A DNA stretch of 64,000 bases from Curvularia clavata (Eukaryota): positions 1,240,001 to 1,304,000 of the forward strand of contig CP089281.1 of NCBI GenBank assembly GCA_023920165.1. Direction: 5' to 3'. Each line of letters begins with the position of its first letter. The first letter of the stretch is position 1. Below, in pieces: positions 10,091-33,616 of the stretch. Below the pieces are notes generated by a model. The model worked only from the letters and a program-made list of their open reading frames with translations. It was not told the DNA's origin and made no database searches. The translations under genes and the position numbers were made by a program.

Positions 10091-11363
10091 ATGAAGACGC
10101 CCCTCGCCACGTTAGCGATATTGGGATCAGCGGCTGCTGAACGCCTCCTCCTGGCATCTTACGGTGTCGACACAACCCCAGGAACTGTTGCCACCCTTGA
10201 ACTCCAACATAGCGCGAGTTACGGTCACGGCCGCAAGCTAGAAGTTATCCATGAGAGTCACGAATGCGGTGCCCTCCCTACATGGCTCGACACATCTCTC
10301 GGTCCGAATACGGTAGTCTGTCTGGATGAAGCATCCAAAAATGCCAACATAACGACATTCAATCTCGAGGCCGATGGTAGCCTGAAGAAAACATCCAGCG
10401 TGGGTACGCTGGGTGCCGCTGTGGCTTCTGCGACGTATAACAGCAAATCGGCTATAGCGCTTGCTCATGTACGCACCTCCACGGCTTCGCTCGTGCTCAC
10501 ATACTAATATCGTGTCAATAGTATGAGCCCCCTGCAATCACAACGTATACAGTCCACCACAACGGATTACTTCAATCTCTGCAGAACTTCACTTTTGGAA
10601 GCCCTGAGCAAATCCACCAAGCAGTCGTTGATCCCACAGGCCAATACATCATCTTCCCCAGCCTGGGCGCCGATCGCGTCCATGTCTATTGCATCGATCC
10701 ATCCACCGGTCTACTAACCGAACACGAGTCCCTAAAATCCAAAACAGGATACGGTCCTCGCCATGCCGTCTTCTGGACCAGCAAAGAATCAGCCTCTACT
10801 TACCTCTTCCTAGTCCACGAGCTTAGCAATAAGATCGTGAGCTACAAAGTCAACTACCTCGAGCACCTTGGCGGGTTGAAATTCACAGAAGTAGACGAAG
10901 TAAGCACGTATGGCAACCACACTGTTCCAGACAAGACGTTTGCCTCGGAAATCGTCATCTCGCCATGCAATTCGTTTGTACTTGCTGCAAACCGCAATGG
11001 CACGGTTTTCACGGTTGAGAACCCGGACCCGAAGAATAGTACGAGGGTGCCGAGCGACTCGATTGCGACGTTTAAGCCTACGGCCGAGGGCAAGCTGAAG
11101 TTTGTCCAGCTGGCAAAGTCAGGTGGATATTATCCGAGGCACTTCAATTTGAACAAGGATGGGTCTATGATTGCGATTGCGAATCAACGTAGTTATAACG
11201 TGGCTATATATTCACGTGACGTGAAGACTGGACTTATCAAGGATGATGTGCCAGTAGCTGGGGCTGCAGGTCTCGGGCCGGGGGATCTGATGTAAGTTTG
11301 GTCACTTTCGACATATACGAACTCATCGCTAAAACAAAATCTAGGTATATCCAATGGGTATAG
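10091..11363 (+). CDS. Secreted 7-bladed beta-propeller lactonase (6-phosphogluconolactonase / carboxymuconate cyclase family)
   Basis: Signal peptide MKTPLATLAILGSAAA; HQAVVDPTGQY, GYGPRHAVF, VHELSN, SGGYYPRHFNLNKDG. Introns about 10469-10521 and 11292-11344. Confidence 0.88.
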
Positions 11364-11447: not shown

Positions 11448-12731
11448 TCAAGGCATCTGTGTTCCTTGTTCCTGCTCAATAGCCCATGATACGGCATCCC
11501 ATACGTCACCCACAATCTTACGTGGCTCCGGTGACGGCTTTGTGCCTTTGACGTAAACACCCGTCTCGACTAATATACTGGCCCAGTCGGTGCCATACGG
11601 ACTCTTGTAGTTGTTGCCGCCAGCAATGTCACTGGCGGGGTTGTCACCGACCATGTACACCCGTTTGAGATGGTCAAGAGTGCCACCGCCACCATACTGT
11701 TTCATCAGCTGGTTGCGATGTGCTATGAGCCGCTTTTCGGCAAACTCATAGGTAGGTTGGTGTGGCTTCCCCATGACAACCTTTTGCAACTTGACGCCAC
11801 GTGCCTCGCCGCCAGTGATTGCCGCCCAAATGCCTTCAAAAGCTTCACGGAAACCTCCTTGGCCTAGGCGCGGAAGGTGGTATTTCGCTGCCCAGAGCAA
11901 GTCTGGGTTGGAGTAGTAGACCGTAGGTTGTCCGTCTTGTTGATAACCGCGATTCTCTAAAGCATCGTTGCCGTTCTTCTTGGATAGGGTTCCCATGATA
12001 CCCTTTTCGGATAGCAATACGTCTTTCAAGATTTGCGCATCCAGCCCCCAGTCACGCGGGTCGTTGTAGACAAACACGGCATCAATGCGGAGCGATGTTG
12101 ATGGTGAAGATGCGTCGATAGGGGCGGGTAGAGGACGGGTAAAGGTCTTGTAGTATGGGAGCAATTGCTGTGAAAACGGCCAAACTTCCGGATGAGCGAC
12201 GAGAATGTCGCCTGGAGTGACCACAGTCTTGAAGCTGTGCATATTTGTTAGAATATATAGCCATATGAAAGTGCGCCTCAACATACCCATATGCCTCGGC
12301 GACTTTCCTACACTTGTCCGCCTCCCCACCAACCACCATGACCGTCTTATCCTTGAGATGGTCCATGTCGGCAAACGGAGTGTGACTCTGAACAAACATG
12401 GACATGTCAAGAGGAACATTGAGCCTGCTGCTCAGGTCGGCGACGCGCTCCGATTCGTGTTTCCCGCCGCCATTGGTGAGCAGAATAAACGGAATGCGCT
12501 GCGACTGGAGATAGGAAAGGGTCTGATGGGCGCGAGGCAAGGGGTCAGCACTCCTAAGGAGCACTCCGTCGATACTGACAGCCGTCAGTGGCCGTGTTGT
12601 GAGTCGATGGCGGAGCTGCCTTACTCGAAAGCGAACGCAAAGTCGGATGCGCGTGCGTTGGGGGCAGCAGCCGTCTGGAGAAAACGACGGAGCGGATAAT
12701 GGCACCCGCTCCGAGCTAATGGCCTCGCCAT
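11448..12731 (-). CDS. HAD-superfamily IIA hydrolase, CECR5/YKR070W-like, probably mitochondrial
   Basis: Arg-rich presequence, FAFDIDGVL (motif I, across intron 12575-12624), LLTNGGG, DPRDWG, GKP, MVGDNPASDIAG. Second intron 12235-12286. Confidence 0.9.
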
Positions 12732-12895: not shown

Positions 12896-13370
12896 TTCTC
12901 AAGAACAATAGGAGCAGATCCAAAAGCCACCGTATCACGCCTCAACCATGTCAGTCTACTTCTAGGCCCCGTTCTTACCTCCTTTGGCGGTATTTGCTGC
13001 AAAGTGCCTTGATTCCATGTTTTCAATACTATTAGTCCACCGCCCCTTGCATGGCCTCGACGATCAAATCGTCCGACGAGTCTTTGGAACTCCCAGTGGC
13101 ACGGGGCGTATGACTGGCTCTTACGAACGGGGGCTTCAACAATGACAAGAGATATGACCTTGTCACGTGCTTCTCAAGAACAATAGTAAGAGTCGGAGCT
13201 AACTAATCGCCACTTCCTAACTACACACATTGCAAGCCTCAAAAGAAGATCTAGACTTGGCTTCGTGATGAACAATCATAGGTCACAAAGGAAACACTCT
13301 TCTTTCTTGCACTGTTGCATCTGATCATACTCCTGATAGAAGCCCTATAAATTCTTCTCTTTCTTCCCCA
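12896..13370 (+). promoter_or_regulatory. Promoter of the CaaX-repeat peptide gene: HMG-box-type sites, TATA box and CT box
   Basis: AACAAT at 12904, 13138, 13179 and 13271, ACAAAG at 13285, all on the + strand. Perfect 16-bp direct repeat TTCTCAAGAACAATAG at 12896-12911 and 13171-13186. TATAAA at 13346-13351 followed by a pyrimidine tract. Confidence 0.65.
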
Positions 13371-13468
13371 GGTCCTAATTTCTCCACTGCAACATCAGTC
13401 TACAACCCTACAATCATCCAAGCTTTCTACTAAAACCTCTTTGAAACTAATATATTTCTTCAAAAAAA

Positions 13469-13648
13469 ATGAAAATGGCGGGTATAAAACCCGTCCCTCG
13501 CCGGGGAAGTTCTCCAGGACCAGGCTGTACCGTCTCTCGCGGCTCTTCTCCAGGCCCAGGCTGCACAGTCTCTCGTGGTAGCTCACCAGGCCCAGGCTGC
13601 GTCGTTTCTCGGGGTAGCTCCCCGGGACCTGGCTGCGTAGTCAGCTAA
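13469..13648 (+). CDS. Putative lipopeptide (a-factor-like / h-type) pheromone precursor, 59 aa, four CaaX-ended repeats
   Basis: Hand translation: MKMAGIKPVPR-RGSSPGPGCTVS-RGSSPGPGCTVS-RGSSPGPGCVVS-RGSSPGPGCVVS-stop. ATG in A-rich context (CAAAAAAAATG), terminal CVVS CaaX box, repeat differences almost all synonymous. One residue shorter than the smallest ORFs in the supplied track. Confidence 0.85.
   Translation: MKMAGIKPVPRRGSSPGPGCTVSRGSSPGPGCTVSRGSSPGPGCVVSRGSSPGPGCVVS
13502..13645 (+). repeat. 36-bp coding tandem repeat, 4 units
   Basis: Units start at 13502, 13538, 13574 and 13610; each encodes RGSSPGPGC[T/V]VS. Confidence 0.95.
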
Positions 13649-14342
13649 ACACTTGTTCTTCCTTCTTCGTCTTCTTCTTTCTTCACGAAATCACTGGGCG
13701 GTCGCGACATTCTTTTCGACGATACTTCTTTGTATATAATGCGAGAGTAACATGGAGGAAGAGAGACAAAAGTAGCTTCTCTCTTCGCTTCATGTCTTAC
13801 CTTGCTGTTTTGCTACGCTACGATACAAACTACGGAGCCCGTTCCCCCGAAAGGGCAGGGTATGTTGACATGAGATATGAGGGTGGATTATGGACGGCGG
13901 GACTTTTGCACAAGGACATGGGATTTAGGAATGGGCGCAGTTGATCGAGGGTGGCAAGGCTATTTTTACTTTTGATGTCTATGTATTATTTATGTCGTCA
14001 CGTCGGAAATACCAATGAAGAAATGGCCATCTCCTTTTATGCGTTCTCGGACAAGCTTGATCCAGTCTTCGAGTGTCTTCATTACTGTGACATCTGGACC
14101 CATGAATTGTTTCATCTGAATCATGCATTACGGTTTTCACGCTGATTGGCCCATGTCAACGTGCATGCACTTCGGTTATTCTCAGCACAAGGCAAGTTCA
14201 ACGTCCGTTTTAGTCTTAGCCCTTCAAGGACCCCTCATCATGGAATGTCCATCGTGTTTTCACGAAACTTCGGTAGGACGTCCTCACCAGTGGCCCTTCT
14301 AGTCCTTGCTCGGGAATTCATGGATAGCTTCCTCGCTTAAAC

Positions 14343-16196
14343 ATGCCATTGAGTCAAAAACCGCGCCGACGTGACTTCGAATATAGCCTTCTACAACCCC
14401 ATAGTTTCAGGTTACTAGAGATCATTCCGGGACGAAGTCTATACGCCGATATTCACTGTAGGCTGCGGCACTATCAATTAGACTCGGCACCGCCATACGA
14501 AGCTCTATCATATACGTGGGGCGATAGGGAGAGTACATGCCGGATATCATTGAATGGTTTAGCCTTCCACATCCGTCCAAACCTTCGTGACGCGTTGCGT
14601 CGCCTGCGGCAACTTGGAAGCACAAGAATCTGGGTTGATGCAATATGCATTGATCAAAACAAAGCCGACGAGAAAGCCGTTCAAGTGCCTCTAATGGGAA
14701 ATATATATACTCGAGCAAAACGTGTTGTTGCTTGGCTTGGTGAAGAGACAAATGAAATTGAGATGGCTCTTGATTTCATGCCACTCTTGACTCAGTTTGC
14801 TATACTCGACAACGAGCGTATCTGGTTAAACTGCCTTAGAAAGAACGAGTTTCTTCTGCGACTGAAGTTCCTTTGTCATCTGTTCGGCCTTCCTTGGTGG
14901 AAAAGGATGTGGATAATCCAAGAAGTGGCACTGGCTCCGGAGGTCCTTGTTTTGTGCGGTTCTCATCGCATTCCTTGGTCGAAATTCCATTCCTTTATCA
15001 CAGTCTGGATGGACATTGGAAATTTGCAGTATCACGACTTGAACTTGCTTCAAGCAAGTACCTGTCGTCTACTTGGCATGCTCGTCTCCGGCTTTGCAGA
15101 GGCATTAACGAGACTGCGTCAGTTACATCAGACTACTTCCTCCGCGCCTGAGTCACTCAAACTATCGAATTTGCTCTGGTCATTCAAATATCGACATGCA
15201 ACTGATCCTAGAGACAAGATTTATGGCCTTTTAGGTCTTCTTGGTGACCACGGAATCCAGGTCGACTGCAGTAAGTCGGCTGAGGATATATACTTGTCAT
15301 TCTTTTCCTCATGCCTGATGGAAGACAAAGGCCTAGACTGGTTTCGTTGGATGACTGGAGAGCCCTATGAGTCTAATGAACTATGCCTTCCATCTTGGGT
15401 TCCCGATTTTGGTCCGAGATCTTTAATCCCAATCTCCTCTTTTTTGCCTTACCAAGATCTAGGAGAGTCGCAGCGAGCATTCTTGACAGCTGGGAGAGAT
15501 CGGTCAAGGTCATCGTCTACTATTAGATTTGGAGATGACTCTCGTATACTCATTCTCCGAGGCTATTTGTTTGACGTGGTCAGCCAATGCGAAGAATATA
15601 CTTACCCCGTTGTAGAAGATAATATTCTTAATGGTAGCGCGGACCGACGAGTCTTCTCACGCTGGAAGAAAATGGCAATGGATACAAAATTTGAAATATA
15701 TCATTCGCGTGTCGCTAAAGAGGATGCCTTTTGGAGAACAATTTTGACCGACCGGCAGATCGAAGGGCTTCATTTTGAGGAAAATGCTGGATGGAACCCA
15801 GCACAGCGACTACAAGCAGGAATACAGCATGTTCCACCTAAAAACAAGGAGGAGGAGCAGCAGTTGTTGCAAGCCATGGAGAATCGGCCACTTTGCCTGA
15901 ACGGGCGAAGTTTTTGTATAACTAGGAAGGGACATTTCTGCTTACTGCCACCGACCGCTTCCAAGGGGGACCTAATCTGCGTATTGCTGGGCGGCGAGGT
16001 GCCCTACGTACTGAGGCGTGTCCATGATCAAAGCGAAGAGTTTTATACGATGGTGGGTGAATGGTGAGTGGCCAGATCCCTGCGTACCGTTTTGATTACT
16101 GACTGGGCTGTTAGTTATGTTCATGGAATAATGGATGGTGAGGTTATTGCCGACATTGCGCAAGGGAAAGACGAGGCTGAGTTCAGGCTGCGATGA
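14343..16196 (+). CDS. HET-domain heterokaryon incompatibility protein, HET-6-like architecture
   Basis: YEALSYTWG, WVDAICIDQ, QVPLMGNIY, WWKRMWIIQE, ATDPRDKIYGLLGL, LPSWVPDF, GDLICVLLGG. Intron 16064-16114 restores the C-terminal VGECYVHGIMDGE. Confidence 0.93.
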
Positions 16197-29396: not shown

Positions 29397-32300
29397 ATGG
29401 ATCGTGGCCGTGGTGGCGGCCGGCGAGGCGCTCGTGGTGGTGCTCGTGGTGGCCGTCATGGAAATGGTATTAGCGATCGAGCGTCTTCTCACAGTTCCGG
29501 GAGCTCTCATAGCCGGCCCAGGGCCAATCGAGCAAACGGCCATACCCAAGTCACTACTCAATCCAACAGGAGTGACCTTCTCTCGGACGACTCGGACAGT
29601 CAGCGCAGTGTGCACAGATCGATTTTATCAGGCCCGGCATCGCATTGGGCATATTGCCAGGAGAGCAAATTCAAACTCTTGGGTATACCTAAGAACTGCT
29701 GGACATCAAATGTCTACCAGGTAATGTCGGCTTATGGTAATGTCTTCAGGATTGAGATGGAGCCACTTGGTCGCGAATCTAACGCATATGTGGTTTTCCG
29801 GTAAGTATTGAATCAAAAAGTCAAAGAAAAGAAGCCTAACATTACAATCCCAGGCCTCCTCCCCACAAGCCTATTCCAAAGGAAAACTTGCGATTTCGCT
29901 CTGGTTTCGTACGGTGCGAAGCGTTTTCGCCGCTCTCGGCCATTATCAAAAGTCCTGTCAACCCCACCAAGCAATACTACGATCTCAACATACTCTACGC
30001 GAAGCAAATCCAGTTTGGTGTCAGAATCTCAGAACGGAGCATGATTGAGATGCGCAACATTGAGACGTCCGCAGACATCCAGGTGATATTGAACTTGAAG
30101 CGCAGAGAGATCGACGTGCAATTTCCTTTGCAAATTGACACAGACACTCGTAATTTTCGCTTCAGTTTACCCATCTCTCTAATATCACATATCTACAGGA
30201 CTACAGACCAGAGAACTGGTCTACCTTCCCTTGTTATCCCATTCGATTCACCACCGCGCTTCTACACACAGAAGAAAGAAGGTGAACGCTTGGAAGATGG
30301 CAGCAAGCACACCAGCTTCTCAAGGAAAGACAAAATCTGGAATGATTGGGAGACTTGGCACCGAGCGACTGATATAGTCAATGGGGCAGTGTGGCAGGCT
30401 GTTCGAGAAAGTCCCTTGATGAATCATAAGGGCACAGCTATCATTGACATTGGTAAATACATTGGGTAACTGTAGCGGACCAATGCTGACTTAACAGGCC
30501 GTTGGACCAACTATCGACTGGTATTCGACCATTCGGTGTTGACTGGGTCACAATTCAAAGACTTCAGCGATGCTCTGGCCGATCATGGGGCCGTGATTGA
30601 GACTCTTGAGTATACTACTAAGCCAAAGATCTCATCGCCATTATGGAGCCTGCTGCAGGAAGAAATTTCCGGTACGCATCCACATCTCGATGTCACTTTC
30701 ATGGCTTTCAAAGACCTCTTCGACAACCAGGCCCACTTGAGTTTCCCAGTGCGATACCAGCTTGAAGTCTGCCTTTCGAACGGATACATTAAAGAGTATA
30801 CCATTACAAAAGAGTTTCTGAAAAAGCTAGAATCACTCGACATAGATACGGCTGTGTACATACTCGAAAAGGTCGCTGACAAACAGCACACCTATTACGA
30901 TCCAATGGATATATTCGACATTCCAACAAGAATGTCGAAAAGAAAGATACCCAGCTACTGCGCACTCCAACGATCAGTCACAATCACTCCGACTATGATG
31001 CATGTAGCAACCCCCGTGATGGAAACGTCTAACCGCATCATCCGTAAGTACGAGGCTGATGCTGATCGATTCATCCGAGTGAAATTCATGGATGAGAAAA
31101 CTGAAGGTCAGCTTCGCACATTGAACGGCAGGACTGAGGCTTTGTTTGATAGAGTGCAACGCGCGATGAAGAATGGTATCGTCGTTGCTGGACGATACTA
31201 CGAATTCCTAGCCTTTGGGAACTCACAGTTTCGTGAGCATGGCGCTTACTTCTATGCGCCCACAACCTCAAAGTCAGCAGAGGATATTCGGATATCTCTC
31301 GGGCAGTTCAATCACATCAAGACTGTCTCCAAGTATGCAGCGCGTCTTGGCCAATGCTTTTCGACAACACGCGCCATGGGTGTCACTGTGAAGCTTATCA
31401 AGATTCCCGACGTTGAGCATAACGGCTACGTCTTCACGGACGGTGTTGGAAAGCTCTCTCTCTTCTTGGCTCAAATGGCAGCTCAGGAACTCGGCCTAGC
31501 TTTCAACGACCCGCCATCGCTCTTTCAGTTCCGTCTTGGTGGTAGCAAAGGAGTGCTTGCGCTTGATCCAAACTTGAGTGGAAGCGAAGTTCATATTCGA
31601 CCGAGCCAATACAAATTTCAAGCCCCTCACACAGGTCTTGAAATCATCCGTTCCTCGTCCTTTGCAACGCCATTCTTGAACCGACAAATAATTCTCGTTC
31701 TTTCACACCTTGGCGTCCACGACATGGTCTTCCTGAACAAGCAGAGGGCGATGATGATTGATTACGCCCGAGCCATGGAGGAGGACGATATCGCCTTGCA
31801 GAAGCTTAGAACGAATATCGATATTAACCAGATCAGCCTGGTAATGGCTGGGATGGTTCTAGACGGCTTCATGCGATATCGAGAGCCGTTTATCATGTCT
31901 TTACTCGCACTTTGGAGAGCTTGCACGATCAAAAACTTGAAGGAGAAGGCGAGAATCGCGATTGACAATGGGGCCTTCTTGCTTGGCTGCGTCGACGAGA
32001 CTTCGACGCTCAAAGGGCACATGAACGATCCTCAATCCAGACGTGATGCAACTAGAGAAGAAAAACTTGCGACCCTCCCAGAGATCTTTTTACAGGTCAG
32101 CGATATCAACAGAAGAGGCCACTACAACATTGTACAAGGCGTGTGCATACTGGCACGTAACCCGTCGTTGCATCCTGGGGATATCCGTGTGGTTCGCGCG
32201 GTGAATGTGCCAGCACTTCACCACCTAAAGAACGTCGTAGTCTTCCCCCAGACCGGAGAGCGTGATCTCGCTAACATGTGCTCTGGTGGCGATCTTGACG

Positions 32301-33616
32301 GCGATGACTACATGGTCCTATGGGACAAGGACCTGATACCCGATATCATTAATGCTCCCCCGATGGACTACACGCCAGAAAAGCCACTCGAAACTGAAAA
32401 GCCGATCACAGCTAAAGAAATAAGCCAGTTCTTCGTCAACTACATGAAGAACGACGCTCTAGGTCCGATTGCTCACTCTCACCTTGCACAAGCTGACTTC
32501 AGAGACAATGGCGTTGGTGATCCAGTCTGTTTGGAGCTAGCAGAGCTCCACTCGAGGGCAGTCGATTTTCCGAAGAGCGGGATACCTGCTGAGATGAGGC
32601 GGGAGCTTAGGCCAAAACGATGGCCACACTTCATGGAGAAGAAGTACTTGGCTCCACACCAGATTTATCACTCCAAAAACATTCTCGGTCGTCTGTACGA
32701 CGAAGTGCAGCTGGTAGATTTCAGGCCCCAGTGGGATAATCCTTTCGACGAGCGCATATTAAATGCGTTCGACCTCGAGCAAGATGTACTGGACAAGGCA
32801 GCAAATCTCAAGCTCTCGTACGACGAAGCGCTCCGGCGATTGATGGCTAAGCACGGTATCCAGACGGAGTTTGAGGCCTGGTCGGTTTTCGTACTAGTGC
32901 ACAATCGCGAGAGCGGTGACTACAAATTCGCAGAGGAGTTTGGCAAAACGGTTGGAGCATTGAAGCACCAGTACCGCGACGAGTGTCGTAAGGCTGCGGG
33001 CATGAACGACAATGCTGACTGGGCACGCCTGGGGCCATTTGTCGCTGCCATGTACACAGTCACTGCGCATGAGATGGAGAGCGCCTTAGACGAATGCAGC
33101 AAAGTGAAGATTGTAGGAGGCCGTGAGGAACCTTGTCGCATCAAGGACCCTAAGCATATGCCGCTGATCTCATTTCCATGGCTTTTTCCGAGTGAGCTCG
33201 GCAAGATCGTTACCGGGGATAGTACAAGTCACCGACCGAATGGGGTTCAGAGCCAGCATCGCCAGAGGAAGTACGTCCGACCAGCTCAAGCAAAAACCAA
33301 CATTGGAGCCGTGGAGACTGAAACAGGCACTACACTATATGGCGAATTGCTGGATTTGGACTTCAGTCTTCCGGCACTTCAAATGAGTGACCAGACCTCA
33401 GCAACTGAGGTAACAAGAGAGCGACCCGGTACCGCTGATGACGGACTTAGTGCACAGAGTCGAATTGGAGAAGCTTCTAGGCTACTATCTTTACTGCTGC
33501 CTAGGTTCTCACCACCCTCTGCCGGTTCTGGCAGTGGGAGCAATGGATCAGCAGAAGACAGTGTCAATGGAAGTCTGGAGCAGCTAGGTAATGGTCATGG
33601 AGACAATAGGTTTTAA
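29397..33616 (+). CDS. Cellular RNA-dependent RNA polymerase, SAD-1/Rdp1-like (DLDGD type)
   Basis: FLAFGNSQFRE, ARLGQCFSTT, FTDGVG, QFRLGGSKG, RNPSLHPGD, catalytic CSGGDLDGDDY, AVDFPKSG. Introns 29801-29853 and 30453-30497. Confidence 0.95.

Follow-up and report, generated by a model that had tools for sequence, protein, structure and literature searches.

A short open reading frame (ORF) on the forward strand of the Curvularia clavata genome, at positions 13469-13648 of the 64,000-nucleotide (nt) stretch analysed here (contig CP089281.1 of assembly GCA_023920165.1, positions 1,240,001 to 1,304,000; hereafter the window), probably encodes the precursor of a farnesylated mating pheromone of the a-factor type, laid out as a tandem polyprotein. 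A probability of about 0.7 is assigned to this reading, in which a single small protein of Curvularia (Pleosporales, Dothideomycetes) would carry several copies of one lipopeptide. The pheromone role itself is a prediction from the sequence of this ORF and of its relatives, as are prenylation, the succession of processing steps, the protease and the mature N-terminus. The positions of the features discussed are collected in Table 1.

The ORF runs from ATG to TAA and encodes 59 amino acids (aa), and a second in-frame ATG gives a 57-aa form whose start agrees with that of several relatives. A leader, MKMAGIKPVPRR, is followed by four in-frame units of 36 nt and 12 residues each, units 1 and 2 translating as RGSSPGPGCTVS and units 3 and 4 as RGSSPGPGCVVS. 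Tandem Repeats Finder reports a period of 36 for the ORF with 80-83% matches, and the mean column identity of the four DNA units is 79%. The last unit places CVVS directly before the stop codon, giving the C-terminal CaaX box that is expected of a-factor precursors, and the protein is short (<100 aa) with a leader that is neither hydrophobic nor a signal peptide, as is likewise expected of that class. Such ends are scarce in the window, where a CaaX-like terminus closes 2 of 603 Met-started ORFs of 20-150 aa, and this precursor is the only small ORF with at least two CaaX motifs followed by K or R. Both the 59-aa and the 57-aa forms are absent from a collection of 15 billion proteins, in which the gene is unannotated. 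Translation confirmed that, as the initial annotation had stated, the only amino-acid difference among the units is T or V at the first 'a' of CaaX, and that the units are joined S|R without a KR spacer, the sole dibasic site (PRR) being made by the end of the leader and the first residue of unit 1. The same annotation had recognised the look of a cytosolic CaaX-type precursor, a description borne out by the non-hydrophobic leader and the lack of KR sites.

Three classes of fungal pheromone precursor provide points of reference for this design. The hallmarks of the alpha-factor type are missing, as there is no hydrophobic leader and single Arg residues form the junctions, with neither KR sites nor Ste13 dipeptides. 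The h-type class calls for at least three copies of a motif, one of them C-terminal and forming a CaaX box, and here there are four copies with the last one terminal; its consensus, (L/I)GC(T/S)VM, agrees with the PGC(T/V)VS of Curvularia in G-C-T-V and differs at the first and last positions. The rhodotorucine-A type is matched in its leader of a few residues, its tandem peptide-CaaX units and the single basic residue between them, although the linkage of such genes to STE3 and the MAT region was not found in the 64-kb (kilobase) window. A tandem polyprotein with one dibasic site before unit 1 might also be thought to mature in the Golgi by Kex2, in the manner of secreted alpha-factor precursors. 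The remaining junctions are monobasic, however, and the two Kex2 sites of another repeat-bearing precursor, HPP1 of T. reesei, are described as dispensable for its function (Schmoll et al., 2010); because there is no signal peptide the Kex2 route is rejected, and it is considered highly improbable.

The four units have been held to one peptide while their DNA has diverged. In pairwise comparisons between units the proportion of synonymous differences (pS) is 0.63-1.11, so high that synonymous sites are saturated, while the proportion of nonsynonymous differences (pN) is 0-0.12, and every nonsynonymous change falls in the T/V codon. Although 5-9 of the 27 nt in the cores differ between units, the nine residues RGSSPGPGC are constant in all four, an outcome that random placement of the same number of changes produced in 0 of 200,000 trials. 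Constancy of the core at saturated synonymous divergence is more than chance would give, and is strong evidence for purifying selection on the peptide of each unit, the internal ones included. Gene conversion was ruled out as the source of the identical peptides, since the DNA of the units has not been homogenised. The same figures bear on the suggestion that this is a chance ORF in a non-coding, repeat-bearing transcript. The ORF is indeed short, of low complexity and absent from the protein collection, but its substitution pattern is codon-aware, and relatives at the protein level occur in other Pleosporales with different units and the same frame logic; a non-coding origin is thought extremely unlikely.

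The gene is transcribed as an unspliced messenger RNA (mRNA) of ~0.66 kb. Assembled RNA contigs from two studies, X8 and X13, each cover the ORF as a single unspliced contig, X13 spanning 13095-14034. Contigs of both runs skip four introns of the neighbouring genes (10468>10522, 11291>11345, 12234>12287 and 12574>12625), with GT..AG or CT..AC ends, and X8 also skips a fifth (16062>16114); this splicing identifies both runs as RNA. The implied mRNA comprises a 5' untranslated region (UTR) of ~98 nt, the ORF of 180 nt and a 3' UTR of ~380 nt, with the caveat that the ends of assembled contigs are hints, not proof, of where a transcript starts or stops. The two contigs stop within 5 nt of one another, a weak hint of the 3' end.

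The transcripts also point to variation between strains. Both runs, which carry the same organism code, differ from the window by A>G at 13508, which turns AGT into GGT so that unit 1 reads RGGSPGPGC, by A>G at 13486, which gives I6M in the leader, and by one additional A in the A-run immediately 5' of the first ATG. Strain polymorphism is a simpler reading of the A>G changes than A-to-I RNA editing, because T>C, G>A, C>A and C>T differences also occur in other genes on the same contigs. The claim that all four units share one core therefore stands for the strain of the window and does not extend to every strain. Two further runs, X19 and X20, provide short pieces over the 3' UTR of the gene only, with 0 differences from the window; the X20 pieces over neighbouring genes differ from it by 0-4 letters.

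Relatives of the ORF were sought at the protein level. A word-index search with the 59-aa ORF returned no match, since the relatives have hardly any exact 5-mers in common with it and are in many cases longer, mis-called ORFs. An exhaustive HMMER scan with the ORF gave 21 matches at E<=1e-3, of which 14 were read (the longer entries P0090, P0092, P0093, P0095, P0096, P0098 and P0099 were left unread), and seven of these 14 have one unit grammar in common, a leader M(A/K)G.. followed by 3-5 units of the form [KR]-x(7)-C-T-[VI]-[QSM]. P0083 is M followed by five units [KR]GSIRGPQCTVQ; P0086, a hypothetical protein of Melanomma pulvis-pyrius, is M with four units [KR]GPTPGSNCTVM and RGPTPGSNCVVH, after which the model runs on; P0088 is MGIVAPRRSAQ with five units R[DG]VSGGMGCT[VI]Q and a final RS; P0089 is MA with a first unit GVVTGPGCTIS, then R and three copies of RGVVTGPGCTIS; P0094 is MAGIIVVK with four copies of RGVTPVPPCTVQ and RML; and P0097 and P0101 are MAGI... 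with three units KGAxPGxQCTVQ, members of their cluster ending ...CTVQRY or ...CTVQRC. Such relatives often sit inside over-long, mis-called ORFs entered from the 5' UTR. A profile made from the trimmed sequences found eight matches at E<=0.01, five known before and three new, namely P0109 (15-aa units), P0111 (16-aa units) and P0110, annotated as a 41-aa 'predicted protein' in Plenodomus lingam JN3 and agreeing with P0094. When 11 relatives were compared with the window by tblastn, this ORF was the best match for every one of them, with E-values of 3e-16 to 1.5e-4 for ten and 0.037 for P0111. These comparisons show, at the level of predicted proteins, a family of relatives in the Pleosporales with the same unit grammar. 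Two metagenome scans yielded 594 and 66 pattern-bearing stretches, none of which was confirmed by tblastn. The translated 5' UTR of the Curvularia gene (13400-13468, in frame) aligns with residues 40-66 of P0094, the upstream part of a mis-called ORF, which suggests that 5' UTR sequence may be conserved across families of Pleosporales.

Across ten lineages, the window included, units are 12, 15 or 16 aa long and the peptide diverges freely while the C-a-a-X-basic block is fixed. A K or R comes directly after each of the 30 internal C-[TV]-[VI]-X motifs, and the X position is occupied by S, Q or M apart from a single H. S, Q and M are the X residues preferred by farnesyltransferase. The last CaaX is the exact end of the protein in five of the ten lineages (the window, P0089, P0083, P0109 and P0111), is followed by R and one or two further residues in four (RS, RML, RY/RC and RY), and lies within an annotated model that runs on in one. 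Conservation confined to the terminal repeat, which the initial annotation had named as an outcome that would speak against it, is thus not what the relatives display.

A more conservative interpretation holds that only the C-terminal CaaX is farnesylated, units 1-3 being a disposable, duplicated pro-region. This single-product route is, going by the part of the a-factor literature available here, the only one proven in ascomycetes (S. cerevisiae a-factor), the window ORF closes with a genuine terminal CaaX, and unit 1 tolerates the S-to-G polymorphism. A disposable pro-region should drift, however, and the N-terminal regions of a-factor precursors are reported to be variable, whereas the internal cores of Curvularia remain identical at saturated synonymous divergence, every internal CaaX of the family keeps its basic residue, and the last unit is itself non-terminal in four of the ten lineages. 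A single product per precursor is on these grounds considered unlikely.

Several observations weigh against the interpretation of the ORF as a multi-unit a-factor precursor. The S-to-G polymorphism places a different peptide in unit 1 of other strains. The proteins predicted for four of the ten lineages lack a C-terminal CaaX and would be unprenylatable if a junction protease did not exist. The relatives are known as protein entries alone, several of them mis-called ORFs, and the other seven of the 14 matches read are tandem-repeat proteins without the grammar, a reminder that repeat-driven similarity inflates scores. None of the 34 window ORFs compared with Pfam is a cyanase or EBP2, the genes that mark the a-factor locus in many Sordariomycetes, and no receptor, MAT gene or processing gene was found among the ORFs of the window. 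The cyanase-EBP2 location is typical of many Sordariomycetes and not strictly defining, and both HPP1 and the Huntiella genes are likewise described as lying away from it. The seven matches set aside as family members (P0081, P0082, P0084, P0085, P0087, P0091 and P0100) lack a terminal CaaX, have degenerate Cys residues or have a different spacer. Among them, P0081 and P0082, from another eukaryote (ENA contigs of 1.0 Mb and 21 kb), consist of tandem 12-aa units of the type ..SPDPGC-LLS-[KQ].., which look like the same succession of peptide, CaaX and junction, but with some Cys changed to Trp and no terminal CaaX, and could be a decayed or an unrelated repeat.

Under the favoured reading of a tandem a-factor precursor, the protein would be made in the cytosol, as suggested by the missing signal peptide. 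An endoprotease reading the single basic residue after each aaX would cut the junctions, leaving fragments that end in C-(T/V)-V-S; farnesyltransferase would prenylate each exposed Cys; a CaaX protease of the Rce1/Ste24 type would take off aaX; the newly formed carboxyl terminus may be methylated by a Ste14-type methyltransferase; and a Ste6-type ABC transporter would export the lipopeptide. From each precursor up to four molecules of a single lipopeptide would be released, as either GSSPGPGC(farnesyl) or RGSSPGPGC(farnesyl). Farnesyltransferase requires a CaaX box at a free C-terminus, so internal units would be lipidated only after proteolysis at the junctions. Where the last CaaX is followed by R and one or two residues, as it is in four of the ten lineages, the junction cut would have to precede prenylation, and judging by the predicted translations at least the first cut must be independent of prenylation in lineages that have no terminal CaaX. 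A cytosolic protease directed by basic residues could free all units in parallel. The initial annotation had pictured the internal CaaX boxes as exposed in turn; a strict succession from the C-terminus towards the N-terminus, each round resting on the previous one, is not required, and the precursors without a terminal CaaX argue for a prenylation-independent cut. Its broader proposal, that the internal CaaX boxes are put to use, is favoured by the equal constraint on internal and terminal units and by the basic residue kept at every internal junction, but the route is not new, as stepwise or multiple prenylation from one tandem-CaaX precursor had been put forward earlier, according to the accessible sources, for rhodotorucine A and HPP1-type proteins.

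The position of the cut relative to the basic residue determines the mature peptide. Cleavage before Arg would give RGSSPGPGC, as originally proposed, but the evidence fits GSSPGPGC at least as well. In favour of the shorter form, the repeated peptide of R. toruloides, YPEISWTRNGC, begins after the junction Lys, P0089 lacks Arg in its first unit, and K and R are exchanged between otherwise identical units in P0083 and P0086. The authors of the Huntiella work count Arg as residue 1 of the unit, with no chemistry given in the portion of that source available here. A cut before the basic residue would expose the CaaX box in one step, while a cut after it would also need a carboxypeptidase.

Genes of this kind are already known, namely the rhodotorucine A precursors, HPP1, VdPpg2 and the Huntiella a-factors; for all but the first, and for S. 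cerevisiae a-factor, the comparisons below draw on the accessible parts of the published descriptions. In the red yeasts, Rha2 of R. toruloides reads MVA-(YPEISWTRNGC-TVAK/TVSK)x4-YPEISWTRNGCTVA, the Sporobolomyces precursor ends ...PGCTVSKA and that of S. salmonicolor ends ...GCTVSKTVA (PMC3236058, supplement file 3). The RHA and Rha2 proteins of Rhodosporidium and Sporidiobolus/Sporobolomyces resemble the Curvularia precursor in their very short leader and in their tandem units of peptide-Cys-T-V-S with one basic residue, and the string PGCTVS[KR] is literally common to S. salmonicolor and the Pleosporales family. As in four of the ten Pleosporales lineages, the last CaaX is in some species followed by further residues, here K and 1-3 more. 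The red yeasts differ in being basidiomycetes, in having an 11-aa peptide in place of the 8-9 aa of Curvularia, and in carrying these genes beside the STE3 receptor in the MAT region, whereas the Curvularia window holds no receptor. The likeness between the two groups may be convergent. Rhodotorucine A, which Akada and colleagues reportedly called a farnesyl peptide in the title of a 1989 paper (Akada et al. 1989), bears on a further possibility, namely that the units are freed at the basic residues but stay unprenylated, as unmodified or otherwise modified Cys-peptides that serve in signalling or in some other capacity unrelated to mating. Prenylation of the Curvularia peptide is a prediction, several relatives have no terminal CaaX, and the RNA contigs come from runs without a recorded link to mating, all of which such a reading would accommodate. 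The C-[TV]-[VI]-[SQM(H)] motif is nonetheless constrained from lineage to lineage in units that otherwise diverge freely, which fits a CaaX box and not a plain spacer, and the red-yeast precursors of the same grammar encode rhodotorucine A; release without prenylation is judged quite unlikely.

Among ascomycetes, the a1 precursor of Huntiella is a repetition of RGVDQSNPCAVM, in which every 12-aa unit starts with Arg and closes with CpaX, and a paper of 2026 extended tandem CpaX a-factors to the whole of the Ceratocystidaceae. These proteins share with Curvularia the 12-aa unit, the leading Arg, an 8-aa peptide, a C-p-a-X end and the absence of a signal peptide; there are up to five units per protein, and the units vary in their CpaX but keep the peptide conserved. 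The Huntiella peptide RGVTQAPP and the Plenodomus-type RGVTPVPP are the same at 6 of 8 residues. Huntiella differs in belonging to the Sordariomycetes, in an X that is mostly M, in a position 5 that is always Gln, in its flanking genes, and in having several gene copies per genome, compared with one copy in the Curvularia window. HPP1 of T. reesei, with three CaaX-like copies, is described as essential for male fertility, and the work on it defined the h-type class and proposed a rhodotorucine-like maturation to up to three prenylated peptides by enzymes given there as unknown (Schmoll et al., 2010). The hpp1 complementary DNA (cDNA) has a 5' UTR of 82 nt, an ORF of 144 nt and a 3' UTR of 347 nt, long 3' UTRs being noted for a-type pheromone genes, and the transcript layout of the Curvularia gene (98/180/380 nt) resembles it, the long 3' UTR included. 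By description, HPP1 is also like the Curvularia protein in its small ORF, its repeated G-C-(T/S)-V-x with one C-terminal copy, a polar first 'a' (CPAX) and a non-classical locus, and unlike it in having three copies of a 6-aa motif, no whole 12-aa units and two Kex2 sites. VdPpg2 of V. dahliae, a five-repeat protein that carries internal CaaX-like motifs and triggers chemotropic growth, resembles the Curvularia protein in size (66 aa), in internal and terminal CaaX motifs, in lacking a signal peptide and in AACAAT elements in its promoter, which MAT proteins are reported to bind; it differs in its 11-aa repeats, in the Lys and Asn proposed as processing sites and in coming from a Sordariomycete. 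The a-factor of S. cerevisiae (MFA1/MFA2) is likewise a cytosolic CaaX lipopeptide pheromone, matured by farnesylation, aaX removal, methylation and N-terminal cleavage by Ste24 and Axl1/Ste23 and exported by Ste6, and is the source of the enzyme logic assumed for Curvularia, but it has one CaaX, one product per precursor and no internal repeats.

The promoter offers a hint in the same direction. AACAAT is not enriched in the window as a whole (35 matches compared with 32.6 expected), and the triple ahead of the gene is the tightest in the window; the probability of at least three matches in the 300 base pairs (bp) upstream of 13371 is 0.00045, and that of any equally tight triple anywhere in the window is 0.075. 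Binding of MAT proteins at this cluster may be suggested, as a supportive hint only. The ACAAAG core of CACAAAGGAAACA resembles pheromone-response and Ste11-type elements.

Table 1. Positions of the precursor gene, its promoter elements and neighbouring features within the window.
Feature	Position	Strand	Basis or remark
Precursor ORF, 59 aa, ATG to TAA	13469-13648	+	direct read, translation
Second in-frame ATG	13475	+	gives 57-aa MAGIKPVPRR..., start agreeing with relatives (MAGI...)
Leader MKMAGIKPVPR	13469-13501	+	not hydrophobic, no signal peptide
Unit 1, RGSSPGPGC-TVS	13502-13537	+	translation
Unit 2, RGSSPGPGC-TVS	13538-13573	+	translation
Unit 3, RGSSPGPGC-VVS	13574-13609	+	translation
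Unit 4, RGSSPGPGC-VVS, with terminal CaaX, then TAA	13610-13648	+	stop at 13646-13648
Transcribed unspliced region, ~660 nt	13371-14029	+	RNA contig X8
TATAAA box	13346-13351	+	direct read; 25 nt ahead of first base of contig X8 (13371)
AACAAT motifs in promoter	13138-13143, 13179-13184, 13271-13276	+	motif search; span 133 nt
Fourth AACAAT	12904-12909		upstream of the triple
CACAAAGGAAACA	13284-13296		~80 nt upstream of first base of RNA contig; contains ACAAAG core, HMG-box type
TTTGAAACT	13440-13448		within 5' UTR; resembles Ste12-type element
Lactonase exon	10522-11295		100% identical to Curvularia clavata protein; next named matches Bipolaris, Stemphylium, Alternaria, Pyrenophora
HET-domain (heterokaryon incompatibility) gene	14328-16067, spliced 16062>16114	+	directly downstream of pheromone-like gene
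Large ORF with full-length RNA-dependent RNA polymerase domain	30476-33616	+	PF05183, E 4.5e-201

By Pfam scan the ORF is flanked by a HAD-type hydrolase gene on the reverse strand and the HET-domain gene on the forward strand. The other Pfam-matched ORFs of the window are a tRNA synthetase, an Hsp70-like protein, the lactonase, Swc3, an S33-type hydrolase, EF-G, an RNA-dependent RNA polymerase (RdRP), an F-box protein, a semialdehyde dehydrogenase, SUR7 and a fungal transcription factor, with no mating gene among them. P0086 of Melanomma comes from a contig listed at 30,204 nt, and the same length is given for the contig that carries the Melanomma orthologue of the neighbouring lactonase, a hint that linkage of the precursor gene to the lactonase may be conserved. 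The five RNA-confirmed introns (10468-10522, 11291-11345, 12234-12287, 12574-12625 and 16062-16114) are short, at 50-53 nt, and lie in the lactonase, HAD-hydrolase and HET genes. A single X13 contig extends over the lactonase and the convergent HAD gene, and the HET-domain gene is transcribed in X8, where it has 7 differences from the window. The RdRP ORF is presumably an RNA-silencing gene.

The new part seems to be the occurrence of a tandem-CaaX family in the Dothideomycetes. A survey of 2023, in the part of its text available here, states that filamentous ascomycetes outside the Sordariomycetes had so far yielded no a-factor gene, and then proposes a Leotiomycete candidate. Searches of the literature found no report of a-factor genes from Dothideomycetes or Pleosporales and no paper with these peptide strings in its searchable text, figures and unopened supplements not being covered. 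A bolder proposal, tentative and on present evidence rather doubtful, is that the gene is the long-missing Dothideomycete a-factor and one branch of an ancient, Dikarya-wide design of leader and peptide-CaaX-basic units, matured by a prenylation-independent cytosolic protease directed by basic residues. If so, this design would be common to the red-yeast rhodotorucine genes, the Sordariomycete multi-CpaX a-factors and the Pleosporales family, and the precursors without a terminal CaaX would prove that the substrate for prenylation arises by proteolysis and not by translation. Lineages in which the last CaaX is followed by R and one or two residues represent a natural experiment on processing order, and the non-terminal-CaaX lineages would narrow the search for a protease that, as far as the accessible sources go, has remained unaccounted for since the description of the rhodotorucine A precursors. 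Major pathogens of crops belong to the Pleosporales, and their sexual cycles are of epidemiological importance; with a candidate pheromone family that can be searched for by a simple grammar, mate recognition in the order can be put directly to the test.

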